Shown piece by piece: positions 1 to 6,231 of a stretch of DNA of 64,000 nt. Source of the stretch: SAR86 cluster bacterium AG-422-E19 (lineage in GTDB: Bacteria > Pseudomonadota > Gammaproteobacteria > Magnimaribacterales > AG-339-G14). Position numbers and translations under genes: made by a program. The number at the start of each line of letters is the position of its first letter. Positions within the stretch are counted from its first letter, which is position 1. The stretch lies in the NCBI GenBank assembly GCA_003213595.1, contig QCMR01000001.1, positions 24,148 through 88,147 on the forward strand, in the 5' to 3' direction. The notes below the pieces were generated by a model. It was not told the origin of the DNA and did not search any database. It saw only the letters and a list, made by a program, of their open reading frames with translations.

Positions 1-1476
1 CAGCCAGTCTTCATAGTTTAAAAAAGGCTTTATTTTATTGGGATATAGTTTGTTCAACTCATCAAAAGTTTTGCCCAAGCCACATGAATGTTCAGCATTT
101 TCAATGCTTGGAAATCTTTTCAAAGCTTCTTTAAATGAACTGATAGACATCCAATAGAAATGAGAATATTTGGATAAATCTTCTATCTCTTTTTCAGGCA
201 CTAATTTATAAGTTGCAATAAGTTTTTTATCTTTTGATTCTGAATCAACATGAGAGACCAAAAACCAATTTACCTCCTCAAGTAACGAGCTGGGTTGCGA
301 TTGTTCCTCTCCTAGGCTATCTGAAGTCCCATTCACCCATATTCCTTTCCTTGCTAATTTAAACCAGTTTTCAATGCCGCTTGTCCAAATGACATTTGAC
401 AAATCAATTGCTCTAACTTTTTCTATTGAACTTGCTCTTGAGATATACAAACCAGAATTTTTAATTGCTTCCATTTCTTTTATCCCTTCGTCAACCTTTG
501 ATCGGGAAAATAATTTAAAATCCTTTTTTGATTTCGGGTAGAAATCTTCGATTGGATTTTTGAATCCGGATAATTCTTTCTTGAAAGGAGAAAAAAACCT
601 TTTATCAATGAGTTCATTTTCTGGCGTTAAGCCTTTCTCAGTGGTGATTTTTCCAAGAGGATGATTTTCTATGCTTACGCCTATTTTTTGATGACAGCCT
701 CCGCCGTATTTTTTGAGTTTTTTTCTTTCCTCTTCTACATCTTTAAAAACATCTAAATCATTGATTTCATTGAGTAATTCAATTACTTCTTTATTACCTG
801 ATTTTATCTCGACAGCTAATGCTCCTTGGCCAGGCGCACAAGGATTTTGTGAACAAGGAATTACCATCCACAAAAATTCATCTAAGTCCTTTTTAAAGGA
901 ATCTAATTCAGTTGTTATCTCTTCTATGGGGGATAAAAGTCGATCCAAAGCAGCCTTGGCTATTACCAAACCATCTGCATTTGAATCTTTAAGTTTTTGA
1001 ACTCTGGTTAAAATATTTCCCCTGATATCACTAAAGCTGAAAGAGTTTATTTCAAAAGGAAAAGCTTTCTTTAAAAATTTTGATAGATTTTCTTGTCTTC
1101 TTGGAGATGACGTATAGATTTCTAATTTTTTCTTTTTGAAGGAACTTTTCTTGAAGATCAAAACATCTCTTGGATCAGCTCTTTTTATAGTTGCAGCAAT
1201 TTCTGTCCCTTCTTCAAGATCAACTGGCAGATCTTTCCAGGAGTGAACGGCAATATCTGCTTTTCCAGTTAATAATTCTTCTCGGATGTCTGAGGTAAAA
1301 ACTCCCATTTCAGGCATTTTGTGCAGGGGTGTAGTTAAGTCTATATCGCCAGAAGTGTCTTTTGTCTTAAAAATAATTTTAATTTCAGGATATTTTTTTT
1401 TAATTACCTCAGAGACTTCTATTGCTTGAAGCTTTGCAAGAGAACTTTTTCTAGAAATGATAGTTAACTCATTCAT
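1..1476 (-). CDS. hemC: Hydroxymethylbilane synthase (porphobilinogen deaminase) with long C-terminal extension; runs off the window's left edge
   Basis: Not in the ORF track. Manual translation from ATG 1476 gives MNELTIISRKSSLAKLQA...TSGD...GVFTSDIREELLTGKADIAVHSWKDLP (HemC signatures). The same frame reads ...PFLNYEDWL at the window edge, implying >=492 aa. Confidence 0.88.
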   Translation of the reverse strand, partial: MNELTIISRKSSLAKLQAIEVSEVIKKKYPEIKIIFKTKDTSGDIDLTTPLHKMPEMGVFTSDIREELLTGKADIAVHSWKDLPVDLEEGTEIAATIKRADPRDVLIFKKSSFKKKKLEIYTSSPRRQENLSKFLKKAFPFEINSFSFSDIRGNILTRVQKLKDSNADGLVIAKAALDRLLSPIEEITTELDSFKKDLDEFLWMVIPCSQNPCAPGQGALAVEIKSGNKEVIELLNEINDLDVFKDVEEERKKLKKYGGGCHQKIGVSIENHPLGKITTEKGLTPENELIDKRFFSPFKKELSGFKNPIEDFYPKSKKDFKLFSRSKVDEGIKEMEAIKNSGLYISRASSIEKVRAIDLSNVIWTSGIENWFKLARKGIWVNGTSDSLGEEQSQPSSLLEEVNWFLVSHVDSESKDKKLIATYKLVPEKEIEDLSKYSHFYWMSISSFKEALKRFPSIENAEHSCGLGKTFDELNKLYPNKIKPFLNYEDWL

Positions 1477-1586
1477 TATAACCAATCCTTATAAACAACT
1501 ATATTATTATAATTCCCTAAAATCTAAATATTTAGTTTGAACTCTTTTACGTCTATAGTAATGTTCAAATTCCTTTTGGAGATGAA

Positions 1587-2837
1587 ATGAACTACAAAAA
1601 ATATTTTTCCGATGAGTTGACCTCTTTAAAGTCGCAAGGTCTTTACAGAAAATTCAGAGAAATAAATCGAGATAAAAAACATTTCCCAAAAGCCACTGAA
1701 AGATTCGAAGGCTCCGAAAGACCTGTTGAAGTCTGGTGCAGTAACGACTACTTAAATTTGAGCCAACACCCAGAAGTTATAAAAAGATCCATTGAAGTTA
1801 TTGAAGAATTGGGGACCGGTTCTGGCGGCACAAGAAATATTTCTGGAACTTCGTCATATCATGCCGACTTGGAAAAAGAGCTTGCCGAACTTCATAATAA
1901 AGAATCCAGTCTGATCTTCCCTTCTGCATATACAGCTAACCAGTCCACTCTTTGGACGCTATGTAAAAAACTTGAAGGTATCGAGGTATTCTCCGATGAA
2001 CTAAATCACGCTTCTATGATTCAAGGTATCAAAAACGCTAACGTTCCTTGTCATATTTTTCGTCACAATGATGTCGATCATCTAAAAGAATTGTTAAATA
2101 CCTCCAATGCCAGTGTGCCTAAACTCATAGTTTTAGAATCTCTTTATTCTATGGAAGGTTTGCGATCACCTCTCAAACAAATCGTTTCCTTGGCAAAAGA
2201 ATTCAACGCTTTAACTTATCTCGATGAAGTTCACTCTGTTGGTCTTTATGGGTCAGAAGGCAGAGGAATTGCAGAAGAGCAAAACGTTAGCGACGAAATA
2301 GACATCATAAACGGTACTTTATCTAAAGCTTTTGGCCAAATGGGTGGCTATGTTGCTGCCAGTTCCGACATTATTGATTTCATAAGAAGTTTTGCTCCTG
2401 GTTTTATCTTTACTTCTTCTGCAAACCCAAGTATTGCAGCTGCTTCTATTAAGGCCATTGAAGTAGCAAAAAAGTCTGAAAATCTTAGAGAAGACATTAG
2501 ACAAAATTCTGATTTAATAAGAACTGGGTTAAGAGATTTGGAAATTCCTCATCTCGACAATGACAGTCACATCATTCCCATTCATCTTGAAGATCCGAGA
2601 CTGTGTAAAAATGCTGCTAATCTTCTTATCGAAGATCATGGAATTTACATTCAGCCAGTATTTTACCCAACGGTTCCAAAAGGCGATGAAAGATTTAGAG
2701 TTACTATTACACCCAAACACCAATCAGAAGATATCGAGAGGTTCTTATCTTCATTAAATCAGGTTTGGGATAAATTAAGTTTAAGAAGAGAAAGCTACGC
2801 ATCCGGCCAAAAACCTCAAGTTACAAAAATTTACTAA
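1587..2837 (+). CDS. hemA: 5-aminolevulinate synthase (PLP-dependent, C4/Shemin pathway)
   Basis: VWCSNDYL, GSGGTRNISGT, SDELNHASMIQGI, FRHND, DEVHSVGLYG, GTLSKAFG (PLP lysine); SD GGAG upstream. Confidence 0.93.
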   Translation: MNYKKYFSDELTSLKSQGLYRKFREINRDKKHFPKATERFEGSERPVEVWCSNDYLNLSQHPEVIKRSIEVIEELGTGSGGTRNISGTSSYHADLEKELAELHNKESSLIFPSAYTANQSTLWTLCKKLEGIEVFSDELNHASMIQGIKNANVPCHIFRHNDVDHLKELLNTSNASVPKLIVLESLYSMEGLRSPLKQIVSLAKEFNALTYLDEVHSVGLYGSEGRGIAEEQNVSDEIDIINGTLSKAFGQMGGYVAASSDIIDFIRSFAPGFIFTSSANPSIAAASIKAIEVAKKSENLREDIRQNSDLIRTGLRDLEIPHLDNDSHIIPIHLEDPRLCKNAANLLIEDHGIYIQPVFYPTVPKGDERFRVTITPKHQSEDIERFLSSLNQVWDKLSLRRESYASGQKPQVTKIY

Positions 2838-2847
2838 TTTAAAAGTC

Positions 2848-2872
2848 GAAATCCCGCCAATGGCGGGATTTC
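2848..2872. terminator. Intrinsic terminator, probably bidirectional (hemA and the convergent TonB receptor transcript)
   Basis: Perfect 11-bp stem GAAATCCCGCC-aat-GGCGGGATTTC with T-rich flanks on both strands. Confidence 0.85.
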
Positions 2873-3079
2873 TTCTCTCCAAAAAACTATATTGAAATAT
2901 CAGGGGGAGATCTTTATGAGATCTGCCATGAGATGAAATGAAAAGGCGTCTCTAAAAATCCACATATCTCAATTTTCGTTTTTTTTCTGGAAGGAAAGCA
3001 ACTCTTAAAAATATTTGAAATATCTTCCTGGATTATTTCAAAATATATAAAGTTGCTTTTCTTCGTTCTCTCCTAATGA
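2873..3079 (-). ncRNA. Candidate 3'UTR-derived regulatory sRNA
   Basis: Unusually long non-coding gap. ~30-bp imperfect hairpin at 2990-3064. CU-rich tract with 13-nt perfect complementarity to the hemA SD/AUG. Ends at the terminator. Confidence 0.45.
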
Positions 3080-5224
3080 TTAAAATCTTTTGCTGTAAGA
3101 AACTCTTACGTTTTGAGACTCACCTACTGAAACTTGATGGTCAGAGTGAGAATGAGGATAATAAGTTTCATCACCTAGGTTTTCAATATTAATCCTTACA
3201 ACATCGTTTTCACCTGGAGTAATTGTCATTGCCATATCTAACCTAGTGTAATCAGGTAATAATGGTCCAGATTCCGCATTAATATAGGATTCATCTTGGT
3301 ATGTTGCTCCAAAGCTAATTGCAAACATGTCGTTAGCTTGGTGTGTATACCACAACGAATAAGTGAGCTCAGGTATTTCCTTTGCTGCTCCCGATCCTTT
3401 CGATTTAGTAGCATCTACAGAAGCTAAGCCAAATCTAATAGCATTGTTATCATTAACTTGGCCGTTAAGAGTTATTTCAAAACCATCGATTTCCAAACCT
3501 ATTTCTCGTGTTTCTTCGCCAGTTCCATTATCAAAAGCAGTTGCTTTAGTCTGTTCACCTGTGAAATAAGCTAATGCAAGCGAGAGACCTGAATCAGTGT
3601 CATATTTAAAACCTAATTCAGTATTTTCAAAAACATCTGGATCAAACTTGCCAGAATCTCCTTTAAAAGTCTTATATTGTTCGCCCGAACGAGGTTGAAA
3701 TGCCTCACTGTAGCTAAAGTATAGCGACATGTTTTCTTGAGGTTTAAAAATTAATCCTAAGCGAGGTGAGAAAAGAGAATCTTTTTTCGTTAAGCTTGGA
3801 TTAGTTCCATTTAAAGCTCCTTTGCCTGTTCCATCAACAGTTATGCCGTACTGTTTAATTGTAGTTTCAACTTCGTCATAACGACCACCTAGGATCATGT
3901 TCCACTGGTCTGCTAAGTCTATGTTCCCTTGAAGATAGAGTGAAGTAACTTCGATGTCAGTATCAGATTGGTTGTTCAAATCAGATATATAATCGACATA
4001 AGTCACTTGGTCTTGAGTTACGTCTGCATCTGTCAATCCACCTGTTTCAAGCGTTCGTCTGTTCGTAAGATTTCCATTTGCTACATTAAAATTCATATTT
4101 CTGACTGGCATAAAGATTTCATTATCGTCTCTAGTAGAAGAGAAGTAAGTGTTGTAACGGTGGTTGTTGTTTTCAGTATCAACCATTTCAAAACCTACAG
4201 TTAATGTTCCTCGATCAAATTCATTTATGCTGCTTAAAGCAATGATTAAGCTTTCACGCATAGTTACATCACGATATCCATCCATCTTAGCTCCCATGGA
4301 AGCTGTGTAATCAGACACGTACAAGTTTTGATACATTTTTCTGAAATCGTTTGCAGTAACACTAAAATTAAGTTTTCCAGTATCAGAATAATTGTGATTC
4401 AGTGAGCCTTTTAAAATATTTGCTTCAAGCGTTGTTGTATTAAGGTCTTTAGTACCAAAAACAATGTCTTTCATAGCATCAATTGGGCTTTTAGTTGCAT
4501 CATCAGTTGGAATACCTCTATCAACGAATCTTTCGTGATCAGCGTATTCATAAGACAAATCTATAGTTGTCTCTGAGTCAACTTGAATTTTCATAGTCGG
4601 GTTAACACCTACTCTATCTCCACTAAACATGTCTCTGTGATTAGCAAGCGAATCAACATGAACGTTTAAACGAAAAGCAACGTTATCGTTGACTATCATA
4701 TTTCCGTCCATAGCAACGTCTCCGCCACCAAAAGAATCAATACCAGTGTCAAGAGAGCTAAAGGTTTCGCCAATTTGAGCAGTCTTAGAAACTCTGTTGA
4801 TTAGACCACCAGTTCCGCCACGACCAAATAAAAGTGCATCACCACCTTTAAGTATCTCAACTTGCTCAACGTTGTAAAGAGATCTGTAGTATTGAACGTC
4901 GTCTCTTACGCCATCTTGATAGAAGTCTGCAGTTGATCTAACACCTCTGAAGACAACAGCATCTCTGTGACCCTCACCCTGAGAAGTATTTACTCCTGGG
5001 GTGTATCTAATTAAATCGCCTATTTGCCTGAATCCTTGGTTTCTAATGTCATCATCAGTGATAACAGATACTGATTGAGGAACATCCAAAATCGGTACTG
5101 GGGGTTTAAGAGAGTTAACTTGATCTTTGTAAAGGACTTTGCCTTTAACCTCAAGTGTCTCATCTTGCGCATAAACCGCTGAAGTTGTAAAAACTAAAGC
5201 GAAAAGAAAAACAATTTTTTTCAT
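3080..5224 (-). CDS. TonB-dependent receptor, siderophore/iron type (Fiu-like)
   Basis: Signal peptide; plug PQSVSVI...YTPGV...RG; YNVEQVEILKG; C-terminal Phe; upstream Fur boxes. Confidence 0.9.
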   Translation of the reverse strand: MKKIVFLFALVFTTSAVYAQDETLEVKGKVLYKDQVNSLKPPVPILDVPQSVSVITDDDIRNQGFRQIGDLIRYTPGVNTSQGEGHRDAVVFRGVRSTADFYQDGVRDDVQYYRSLYNVEQVEILKGGDALLFGRGGTGGLINRVSKTAQIGETFSSLDTGIDSFGGGDVAMDGNMIVNDNVAFRLNVHVDSLANHRDMFSGDRVGVNPTMKIQVDSETTIDLSYEYADHERFVDRGIPTDDATKSPIDAMKDIVFGTKDLNTTTLEANILKGSLNHNYSDTGKLNFSVTANDFRKMYQNLYVSDYTASMGAKMDGYRDVTMRESLIIALSSINEFDRGTLTVGFEMVDTENNNHRYNTYFSSTRDDNEIFMPVRNMNFNVANGNLTNRRTLETGGLTDADVTQDQVTYVDYISDLNNQSDTDIEVTSLYLQGNIDLADQWNMILGGRYDEVETTIKQYGITVDGTGKGALNGTNPSLTKKDSLFSPRLGLIFKPQENMSLYFSYSEAFQPRSGEQYKTFKGDSGKFDPDVFENTELGFKYDTDSGLSLALAYFTGEQTKATAFDNGTGEETREIGLEIDGFEITLNGQVNDNNAIRFGLASVDATKSKGSGAAKEIPELTYSLWYTHQANDMFAISFGATYQDESYINAESGPLLPDYTRLDMAMTITPGENDVVRINIENLGDETYYPHSHSDHQVSVGESQNVRVSYSKRF

Positions 5225-5257
5225 AATAAATTCATCTCCTAAATAAGATTGATTATC

Positions 5258-5278
5258 AAATGATAATGATTATCATTT
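5258..5278. promoter_or_regulatory. Fur box overlapping the sigma70 promoter of the TonB receptor
   Basis: AAATGATAATGATTATCATTT (7-1-7 TGATAAT-n-ATTATCA). Minus-strand promoter TTTACA(5288-5283)-17 bp-TATCAT(5265-5260). Confidence 0.88.
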
Positions 5279-5292
5279 ATATTGTAAATGAA

Positions 5293-5311
5293 AATGAGAA
5301 ACATTCTCATT
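5293..5311. promoter_or_regulatory. Second Fur box
   Basis: AATGAGAAACATTCTCATT, near-palindromic Fur-type site. Confidence 0.7.
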
Positions 5312-5340
5312 AAGATATATATTTATAACTTTTTTATTTT

Positions 5341-6231
5341 TTAAGCGTAAAAACGTCGCCAGAAAGTAAGTCCAAGCAAAAGAGAAGCCAACCATGCAAA
5401 AAGTTCCACATAGTTTGGATTACTGTTGTAACCAAAAAATCCTTTTAAGAATGCGCCAACGCTTCCACTATCATGCATGATGTGTATGTATTTGCCCTGC
5501 CCTTTGATGTTGTAACTATAGAAAAAAGATTGATCATTTTCTCCAAGTTCTTCTTTGGGCTTTAAAATATCCCAAGGTCTGGATATTTCCTCTTTGCTTT
5601 CAAGACCAACCATTTGCAAATTATCGGATTTGACCAAATAACTTTCAATTTCATGAGTGCCATAAGCAACCATGCCTGAAGCTAAAAATACCAACAACAA
5701 TGTTGTCGCTTGGAAGAAAGATCTAATATTGAATCTTTTTCCTTGAATAACAAAGATATAAACCAAGATCAAAGCGGCGATGATTCCAGTAAAAAACCCT
5801 AAATAAGAAAAGCTTTGAGTCATCGAAAAACTAGCTAAAAGGAATACAACCGTTTCAAAACCCTCTCGAATCACTGAGAAAAAAACCAAAAAGAAAATTC
5901 CCCAGGACGAACTCATGGCAATAACTGACTGCTCTTCAAGTTGTTTACGATCACTAACATGTTTTGAAAGCCAAAAAATTACATACCAAATAAAGCCTGC
6001 AGTTATGAACATAAAAATTCCTTCAAAGAGAGCTTTAAGAGAGTTGTTTCCCAGAGCCTGTTGCGCTGAAACAATAAAATAAGCGACCAAAATACTGGCA
6101 ACAATTGATGTTAGAACAGCAAGCCATAGCTTTTGAGTTGAAGCGCCATTACTGGTTAGGAATAAATAAATTATTCCGACAATTAAGGCAGCTTCCAAAG
6201 TTTCTCTAAATAGGATAATAAATTCGTTCAT
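5341..6231 (-). CDS. FTR1/EfeU family high-affinity iron permease
   Basis: Two RExxE motifs (FRETLEA, IREGFET); about 7 hydrophobic helices. Confidence 0.92.
   Translation of the reverse strand: MNEFIILFRETLEAALIVGIIYLFLTSNGASTQKLWLAVLTSIVASILVAYFIVSAQQALGNNSLKALFEGIFMFITAGFIWYVIFWLSKHVSDRKQLEEQSVIAMSSSWGIFFLVFFSVIREGFETVVFLLASFSMTQSFSYLGFFTGIIAALILVYIFVIQGKRFNIRSFFQATTLLLVFLASGMVAYGTHEIESYLVKSDNLQMVGLESKEEISRPWDILKPKEELGENDQSFFYSYNIKGQGKYIHIMHDSGSVGAFLKGFFGYNSNPNYVELFAWLASLLLGLTFWRRFYA

Follow-up and report, generated by a model that had tools for sequence, protein, structure and literature searches.

A conserved structured RNA element between convergent hemA and iron-receptor genes of SAR86 bacteria is a candidate regulator of heme synthesis

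Introduction

Iron is a limiting nutrient for bacteria across much of the surface ocean, and post-transcriptional control is almost unknown in the abundant, uncultured, small-genome gammaproteobacterial plankton to which SAR86 cluster bacterium AG-422-E19 belongs. In a stretch of 64,000 nucleotides (nt) from its genome (hereafter, the window), two genes converge on an unusually long gap, which raises the question of what this gap contains and whether it ties one gene to the other. The first is hemA (1587-2837, plus strand), which encodes a 5-aminolevulinate (ALA) synthase of 416 residues (548.5 bits against the NCBIfam model TIGR01821, cut-off 338.6). The second (3080-5224, minus strand) encodes a siderophore-receptor-like TonB-dependent receptor of 714 residues that has plug and beta-barrel domains and scores slightly below the cut-off of NCBIfam model TIGR01783 (213.6 versus 223.5 bits).

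A preliminary description of this DNA proposed that the 3' untranslated region (3'UTR) of the receptor mRNA carries a Fur-controlled small RNA (sRNA) whose seed covers the hemA start site. Its coordinates all agree with the sequence, including those of the GCC (2925-2927) and GGC (2945-2947, both plus strand) said to close the seed loop. Here, we examine the element in this gap, the strand on which it acts, and the evidence that hemA is its target.

Results

The hemA-receptor gap holds a conserved element

By a crude open reading frame (ORF) call, the window holds 62 genes with a median intergenic gap of 3 nt. Only two gaps in the window exceed the 242 nt (2838-3079) between hemA and the receptor gene, and none of the other eight convergent gaps does (range -18 to 121 nt), so this gap is indeed unusually long, as had been claimed. 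The surrounding 1-kb region is syntenic in 15 of the 16 other genomes of the genus. Within the gap, a module of ~145 nt is found in 14 of the 17 genomes of the genus, as a single copy and always at this locus. In the gap alignment, AGGGGGAGATCTTTAnGAGATnnGCCATGAGATGAAATGAAAAGGCnnCTCTAAAAATC is carried by 14 of 16 same-genus loci, and the G009 and G008 loci have gaps of 45-52 nt that contain a terminator-like hairpin and a CTCTCC motif only. A search with the core pattern (up to three mismatches) through 266 genomes of the order matched 14, all of one genus and with one copy each, while the reversed control pattern matched none. A covariance model likewise found 14 matches (108-150 bits) among 50 genomes of the family and no credible match elsewhere in that set; the 40-47 bits scored by the two genomes without the element apparently come from their terminator alone. 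We found no copy of the element in other genera of the order.

This conservation is not a product of low divergence, because neutral sites in the neighboring gene are saturated. Across 13 genomes (locus L015 was dropped for its partial hemA match), four-fold degenerate sites of hemA have a mean pairwise identity of 43%, and only 3 of 115 are invariant. The longest invariant run in the same genomes is 16 nt in the gap, compared with 8 nt in the 1233-nt hemA coding alignment. In a metagenome scan with no constraint on the loop of the element, the pattern was too loose: of the at least 120 stretches listed, 14 were true elements, and all 14 keep GAGATGAAATGA. In a hemA tree of 19 rows (again without L015), carriers occupy every deep branch and the two non-carriers are nested separately among them rather than being sisters, so on this tree the element is ancestral to the genus, with two losses. 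Together, these data show that the 242-nt gap holds a real functional element, a conserved non-coding one rather than filler.

The minus strand of the module folds around an open loop

We next describe the module in the direction of the receptor mRNA, i.e., on the minus strand. After an A-rich stretch (AGAAAAAAAACGAAAA, 2973-2988) comes the 5' arm of an outer helix, P0 (UUGAGAUAU, 2964-2972), which is seen in single-sequence folds and in arm-pairing energies. A seed hairpin follows (2909-2960; stems GAUUUUUA/UAAAGAUC, GAGA/UCUC and GCC/GGC), which includes the 16-nt invariant run and displays an invariant, open 17-nt loop (UUUUCAUUUCAUCUCAU, 2928-2944). The seed (UUCAUUUCAUCUC, the complement of 2930-2942) lies within this loop. 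Next come a nearly invariant C-rich stretch, UCCCCCU (2902-2908), which is unpaired in predicted folds, and the 3' arm of P0 (AUAUUUCAAU, 2891-2900), present in all 14 single-sequence folds. A linker (UUUUUUGGAGAG, 2875-2886), whose U-run pairs with the A-run at 2973-2988 in predicted folds, leads into a GC-rich hairpin (GAAATCCCGCC-AAT-GGCGGGATTTC, 2848-2872) that is common to both convergent genes. All 14 single-sequence folds share this architecture, including the outer helix, which is built from variable flanks. The fold of the window's own module on the minus strand has a z-score of -3.5 and leaves the 17-nt loop open; the seed has an ensemble unpaired probability of 0.98. GCC/GGC thus closes a hairpin loop that displays the seed, as had been supposed.

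Which strand is the RNA? Fold energy does not answer this, since the plus strand folds well too (z = -4.3), and the strand call is based instead on an asymmetry in G·U pairs. All seven one-sided changes, four in the seed hairpin and three in the GC-rich hairpin, give G·U on the minus strand and A·C on the plus strand, and one invariant U·G pair of the minus-strand seed hairpin would be A·C on the plus strand. In a hand-drawn structure comprising the seed-hairpin stems and the terminator, the paired fraction of cells is 95.9% for the minus strand versus 90.7% for the plus strand. The GC-rich hairpin is kept in 16 of 16 loci with two compensatory pairs; the seed hairpin has no compensatory changes because it hardly varies. 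Furthermore, cognate outer arms pair at a mean of -7.4 kcal/mol, compared with -4.2 for 176 non-cognate combinations and -5.0 in the plus sense, and they pair better in the minus sense in 11 of 14 genomes. Together, the G·U asymmetry, the covarying outer arms and the single-sequence folds favor the minus strand, in line with the original assignment, and we hold with good confidence that the element is a functional minus-strand RNA.

A plus-strand function is improbable by comparison with this evidence. It would take the form of a copy of the hemA ribosome-binding site (RBS) displayed in a loop, which might serve as a decoy or offer another binding site to a protein or RNA that recognizes the shared sequence as such, and it would be transcribed by read-through from hemA or in a transcript ending at a long hairpin near the receptor stop (2990-3064). 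Besides the plus-strand fold, it has in its favor a strong SD-like (Shine-Dalgarno-like) motif, AGGGGGAG, and a T-run after the long hairpin in several genomes (e.g., seven T in L008 and eight in L014). The pairing asymmetry nevertheless favors the minus strand in the seed hairpin, outer helix and terminator alike, and three carriers lack the long hairpin altogether. Small plus-strand reading frames are excluded, because the gap alignment has no conserved start codon after AGGGGGAG and the A-run changes length by single bases (AAAGGC, AAAAGGC, AAAAAGGC).

The minus strand does contain a short frame of nine codons, M-A-x-L-x-K-I-S-P-stop, which begins with an AUG at the 3' edge of the loop. Of 28 sequences (14 genomes and 14 metagenome contigs), 26 keep the frame and its stop position; the stop may be any of the three codons, and third positions vary at codons 2, 4 and 7. 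These observations favor a micropeptide or a translated regulatory frame. We nonetheless regard translation as the reason for conservation as highly improbable. The four-fold third positions of TCC and CCC, as well as AAG, do not vary, against a background of saturated neutral sites. The AUG has no SD in front of it, codon 3 undergoes radical changes (D/N/Y/M/K/R/I), the frame is shifted or extended in two sequences, and a peptide would leave the invariant loop upstream of the AUG unexplained. The invariant four-fold positions, the missing SD and the loop upstream of the AUG point to selection on RNA rather than on a peptide.

A long imperfect hairpin (2990-3064) directly after the receptor stop is optional, being absent in 3 of the 14 element-bearing genomes. 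Its stem sequences vary among genomes while complementarity is retained (alignment read by eye). CTCTCC of the linker (2875-2880) recurs at 3068-3073 as a direct repeat that bounds the module, and element-less genomes retain one copy beside the terminator. The presence and absence of the long hairpin disagree with the hemA tree. This pattern and the single CTCTCC of module-less genomes suggest repeated deletion between short repeats. The direct repeat, with its single copy where the module is missing, could also mark the scar of a mobile insertion, and the presence of one 13-mer at two nearby places could reflect a protein-binding site common to the hemA start and the gap. Either DNA-level explanation is most unlikely: a mobile repeat would not be confined to a single copy at one locus in each genome, covarying helices and strand-specific G·U pairs indicate RNA, and an operator would not account for a 145-nt fold.

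The module probably lies at the end of the 3'UTR of a Fur-boxed receptor gene

The module (2840-2988, minus strand) is downstream of the receptor stop, on the receptor strand, and shares the receptor gene's first terminator-like hairpin. We infer that it forms the end of the receptor 3'UTR, because the first GC-rich hairpin with a U-rich tail after the receptor stop at 3080 is that at 2872-2848, while the long hairpin has no U-tail on the minus strand. In module-less genomes, the same hairpin directly follows both genes. It is presumed to be a bidirectional terminator and, on the minus strand, the 3' end of the RNA. The A-rich stretch at 2973-2988 separates the long hairpin from the module and may be a site of processing; the genome encodes an RNase E/G.

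The preliminary description had called the receptor gene Fur-boxed, and this feature proved to be conserved. A Fur box (5262-5280, minus strand) overlaps a promoter-like site in front of the receptor gene (TTTACA-17-TATCAT, 5288-5260, minus strand, from a consensus scan). With a Fur-box consensus as the query, it is the sole match in the 64-kb window at up to three mismatches, where 0.05 would be expected by chance, so that no second box lies near the module. All 17 genomes of the genus have a Fur box in front of the receptor gene, with 16-18 of 19 positions matching, and Fur itself is encoded in the genome. Another promoter-like site is located at 3186-3158 (minus strand); the consensus scan found promoter and terminator sites no more often than chance, with 13 such promoter-like sites against 12.6 expected. 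A second Fur-box-like palindrome, AATGAGAATGTTTCTCATT, is present upstream of the main Fur box (in 5225-5340) and in other genomes is replaced by AATAATAATCATTCTCATT at the same position.

We also searched for the other components of known iron-sparing systems. Hfq was not detected (no match to PF17209; the control matched 5 of 14 reference genomes), which in a 91%-complete genome is no proof of absence. A whole-genome search with the RyhB model RF00057 returned no match, while the control was matched in E. coli. Glutamyl-tRNA reductase (PF05201) was not found in the 91%-complete genome either, and ALA synthase therefore seems to be the only route to ALA, and thus the only entry to heme, in this genome. 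The nearest relatives of this ALA synthase outside the group are alphaproteobacterial (44-49% identity, loci L047-L126), which, with the missing reductase, suggests that an acquired C4 enzyme replaced the C5 pathway. Finally, an Rfam cmscan of 1400-5400 with E-values up to 10 gave sub-threshold chance matches only. The best, to mir-787 (29.3 bits against a gathering score of 57), reflects nothing but the hairpin shape of 2990-3064, and the preliminary description had likewise not recognized the RNA as a known family.

The loop is complementary to the hemA start site

The link between the module and hemA is a 13-mer, GAGATGAAATGAA, at 2930-2942. The same sequence on the plus strand at 1579-1591 comprises the hemA SD (GGAG from 1578), the spacer, the AUG (1587-1589) and the first bases of codon 2. 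The seed on the minus strand can accordingly form 13 contiguous Watson-Crick pairs across SD, spacer and AUG, and the perfect complementarity that had been reported is borne out. The window contains exactly two copies (at 1579 and 2930) and none on the opposite strand, and the whole genome of 1,109,701 bases contains the 13-mer only at these two places; a genome search also found a 14-nt overlap with the loop at C5:44140 (minus strand), inside an ORF. In Smith-Waterman comparisons of the gap with the hemA initiation region (500 shuffles), the same-sense match had p = 0.002 and the other orientation p = 0.10. The preliminary description had named a decayed duplicate of a gene start as a possible origin of the match. 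This origin is excluded, because the identity stops at 13 nt, extending by no base on either side, and because the element is invariant where neutral sites are saturated.

We then compared hemA with other start regions. The 2318 candidate starts, taken genome-wide from a crude ORF call, form an over-inclusive set; of these, hemA gives the strongest duplex with the 17-nt loop, at -18.3 kcal/mol (mean -5.95, standard deviation 2.9). RNAcofold of the module with the hemA leader returned an unrelated interaction, as it cannot represent pairing of a loop with a linear strand, and duplex energies and unpaired probabilities were used instead; the hemA target site has an average unpaired probability of 0.53. 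Across the 14 carriers, seed and hemA form 13 perfect base pairs in 11 genomes, 12 in one, and 13 with a single G·U in the remaining two. Metagenome contigs agree: of nine that reach the hemA start, five have the site unchanged and four have one A-to-G change. The only changes in the target, in genomes and metagenome contigs alike, are A-to-G and still pair with U. Of the candidate targets compared, hemA alone retains its site across both deep clades. The acnB and iscS-like sites persist in one clade only, in 11 of 17 and 8 of 15 genomes, respectively. The energy ranking of hemA and the breadth of its conservation thus make it the leading predicted target.

A different reading is that the minus-strand RNA is real and hemA is not its main partner. 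The module would then act as a general iron-sparing regulator, with its anti-SD-like loop and C-rich motif directed at several mRNAs (such as acnB, iscS, katG, ETF-QO and tauD), or as a cis-acting 3'UTR element for stability or termination of the receptor mRNA, and the match to the neighboring gene would be incidental. True starts within the top 25 of the 2318 include those of a Gcw_chp outer-membrane protein, RNase E/G, PepA, AcnB, a TauD-family dioxygenase, a KatG-like peroxidase, ETF-QO (4Fe-4S), TonB and the receptor itself. The loop also matches an iscS-like start over 12 nt, a match that reaches 15 nt and -20 kcal/mol in G011. In short-form genomes, moreover, the element occupies the entire 3'UTR. 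The iron and heme flavor of these targets is suggestive, but the list is post hoc: it draws on roughly a dozen true starts chosen by hand, not on a genome-wide annotation. The first rank of hemA and the retention of its site in both deep clades argue against an incidental match, and a pure stability element would need no invariant open loop of 17 nt. We therefore view a main role other than hemA control as rather unlikely. Start regions complementary to the C-rich motif formed a mixed list with no clear theme.

Several observations weigh against repression of hemA and are considered together here. First, hemA is no outlier by energy alone: the runners-up, several of which are internal sites rather than true starts, have duplex energies of -17.5 to -15 kcal/mol. 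The seed resembles an anti-SD sequence plus anti-AUGAA, so many start regions pair with it moderately well; the loop probably resembles the 16S anti-SD sequence, a likeness that would favor any strong SD. Second, seed and hemA site are both conserved, and no compensatory change between them is seen among carriers, because both partners are nearly invariant. The wobble-compatible changes in the target also weigh little, A-to-G being the commonest type of mutation. Third, the conservation of the hemA site may have other causes, because the whole hemC/hemA gap is highly conserved, and of the two element-less genomes G009 has an intact hemA site while that of G008 has diverged (AAAACGAAATGAA). Fourth, a 13-bp helix within a 17-nt loop requires the weak GCC/GGC stem to open. 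Fifth, the consensus terminator scan of the window did not flag the hairpin at 2848-2872. Finally, the RNA-library evidence consists of assembled contigs, which have no strand, level or condition information, may include DNA and show presence only. Fifteen runs recorded as RNA contain parts of the locus, and four of them were aligned with it. In favor of the model, a 492-nt contig of X2 (depth 37.9; depths are not comparable between contigs of different strains) joins the end of the receptor coding sequence to the core element, because three of its stretches align colinearly (with 3219-3258, 3079-3112 and 2902-2973). A 574-nt contig of X1 covers 3013-3586. X1-X3 leave bins 2740-2873 uncovered, and hemA and the module are not linked by any of the contigs listed; such holes prove nothing, and we give them no weight.

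The divergent hemC/hemA gap itself (1486-1586) is near-invariant across 16 genomes (e.g., CATTATAACCAATCCTTATAAACAACTATATTATTATAAT and TTTTACGTCTATAGTAATG). Its conservation exceeds the needs of promoters, and it may hold regulatory sites shared by the heme genes. A two-codon frame, AUG-AAA-UGA (1582-1590), overlaps the hemA start codon and is copied in the gap element through the shared 13-mer.

Other genera of the family have their own gap elements

The arrangement of hemA and the receptor gene extends through the family, and two other genera, g2 (L023, L024, L032) and g4 (L020, L028, L029), have conserved, structured gap sequences of their own at the same place. The g4 element folds at about -55 kcal/mol on the minus strand versus -38 on the plus strand and has a hairpin of 12-16 bp, a 15-nt loop containing CAU, and a CACCCCU stretch. 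A resemblance between the g4 and g1 elements noted by eye (GAUUUUU, the stem-loop and CACCCCU) is unsupported, because the covariance model links no g2, g3 or g4 element to g1. When three genomes were searched for targets of the g4 loop with up to two mismatches, the element itself was the only match without a mismatch in each of the three, and an 11-nt shared core was found elsewhere. These genera add two further points to those that weigh against hemA as the target: the g4 gap element has no complementarity to its own hemA start, and the gapped same-sense similarity of the g2 element to its own hemA start is marginal (p = 0.02-0.04).

Discussion

We propose the following model, in which the conservation, strand preference and fold of the element, its complementarity to hemA with its rank, and the Fur box are shown by the analysis and the transcription and processing of the 3'UTR, the iron response and the repression are inferred. 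A structured module of ~145 nt, running on the minus strand from ~2988 to ~2840, would end the receptor 3'UTR at the hairpin common with hemA. It would consist of an outer helix, a 15-bp imperfect hairpin with an open 17-nt loop, the single-stranded UCCCCCU and the terminator. Under iron scarcity, Fur would leave the receptor promoter and the module would be made together with the receptor mRNA, possibly with a cut in the A-rich stretch behind the optional long hairpin. The loop would then pair with the 13 nt over the SD, spacer and AUG of the hemA mRNA. Initiation at hemA would be blocked, leading to less ALA synthase and hence less iron-consuming heme synthesis. Because no Hfq is detectable, we suggest that this pairing would be chaperone-independent and initiated by the loop. 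Whether the module represses hemA in this way we consider evenly balanced.

In its widest form, which we offer as a tentative reading, an iron-sparing response would be built into the 3'UTR of an iron-uptake receptor in genome-streamlined marine Gammaproteobacteria that seem to have neither Hfq nor RyhB. One Fur-controlled transcript would both import iron and, by means of an anti-RBS sequence displayed in its loop, shut off the neighboring ALA synthase, the sole entry to heme. Some members of the genus would use it against mRNAs of Fe-S and heme enzymes as well (acnB, iscS, katG, ETF-QO). The receptor 3'UTR would be an evolving platform for such regulators, because related genera carry different structured RNAs there.

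We regard the element as a new RNA family of a known kind, i.e., an iron-linked, 3'UTR-borne base-pairing RNA. CpxQ, SdhX and s-SodF are other 3'UTR-derived sRNAs, and like this class the module sits at an mRNA end, has a common terminator and is proposed to act in trans on another mRNA. The proposed logic is that of RyhB and PrrF, where Fur derepression yields a base-pairing RNA that covers an RBS and lowers iron- or heme-consuming functions. The module nevertheless has no sequence or structure homology to RyhB (RF00057), as judged by the Rfam scan of the region and the genome search. It also differs from RyhB and PrrF in having no detected Fur-boxed promoter of its own, being located instead in the 3'UTR of a Fur-boxed receptor gene; in the lack of a detected Hfq; in the placement of its seed in a large hairpin loop; and in its target, the adjacent ALA synthase gene. 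IsrR of Staphylococcus aureus is reportedly an iron-regulated, Hfq-independent sRNA, encoded by an independent gene, whose C-rich motifs are single-stranded and may pair with SD sequences. On these points, it resembles the module in being iron-linked, in its single-stranded C-rich motif and in the absence of Hfq, whereas the module lies in a 3'UTR; the two are unrelated as far as the Rfam scan can tell.

Heme genes are targets of RNA regulators elsewhere. RyhB controls heme biosynthesis genes in Shewanella oneidensis (PMC13688836), and Srn_9342, a 3'UTR-derived sRNA of S. aureus, represses hemQ (bioRxiv 10.1101/2024.10.25.620293). The module resembles Srn_9342 in that its predicted target is a heme-biosynthesis gene, and differs in RNA family, organism and target (hemA for ALA synthase rather than hemQ). 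A SAR86 non-coding RNA near sugar-metabolism genes, mentioned by Dupont et al. (PMC3358033), is different from the element described here. A literature search, which did not cover supplements, found no report of this element.

Since Fur-linked RBS occlusion and 3'UTR-borne regulators are well established elsewhere, what would be gained is a new family in a new host lineage, not a new principle. The element is of interest for this lineage, for the missing Hfq and for the way in which it would couple an iron receptor directly to the neighboring heme gene. If the model holds, this group would gain a concrete regulatory RNA, and a single transcript would couple iron uptake to heme synthesis without Hfq or a separate sRNA gene. 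The ratio of module signal to receptor-coding signal could then be used in metatranscriptomes as a marker of iron stress.

Other features of the locus

Outside the gap, the C-terminal 200 residues of the receptor drop to 56-63% identity. At the acnB start region, identity to the window is 95-98% in several genomes, but it is only 71-80% around hemA and the receptor gene (acnB and iscS-like loci L184-L217 versus L003-L018). The receptor locus thus appears especially prone to divergence or recombination. On the other side of hemA, a hydroxymethylbilane synthase ORF (1-1485, minus strand) runs off the window and encodes at least 495 residues, of which the Porphobil_deam domain covers residues 7-235 only; the long region beyond it, toward the C terminus, may represent a second, fused domain of the heme pathway.

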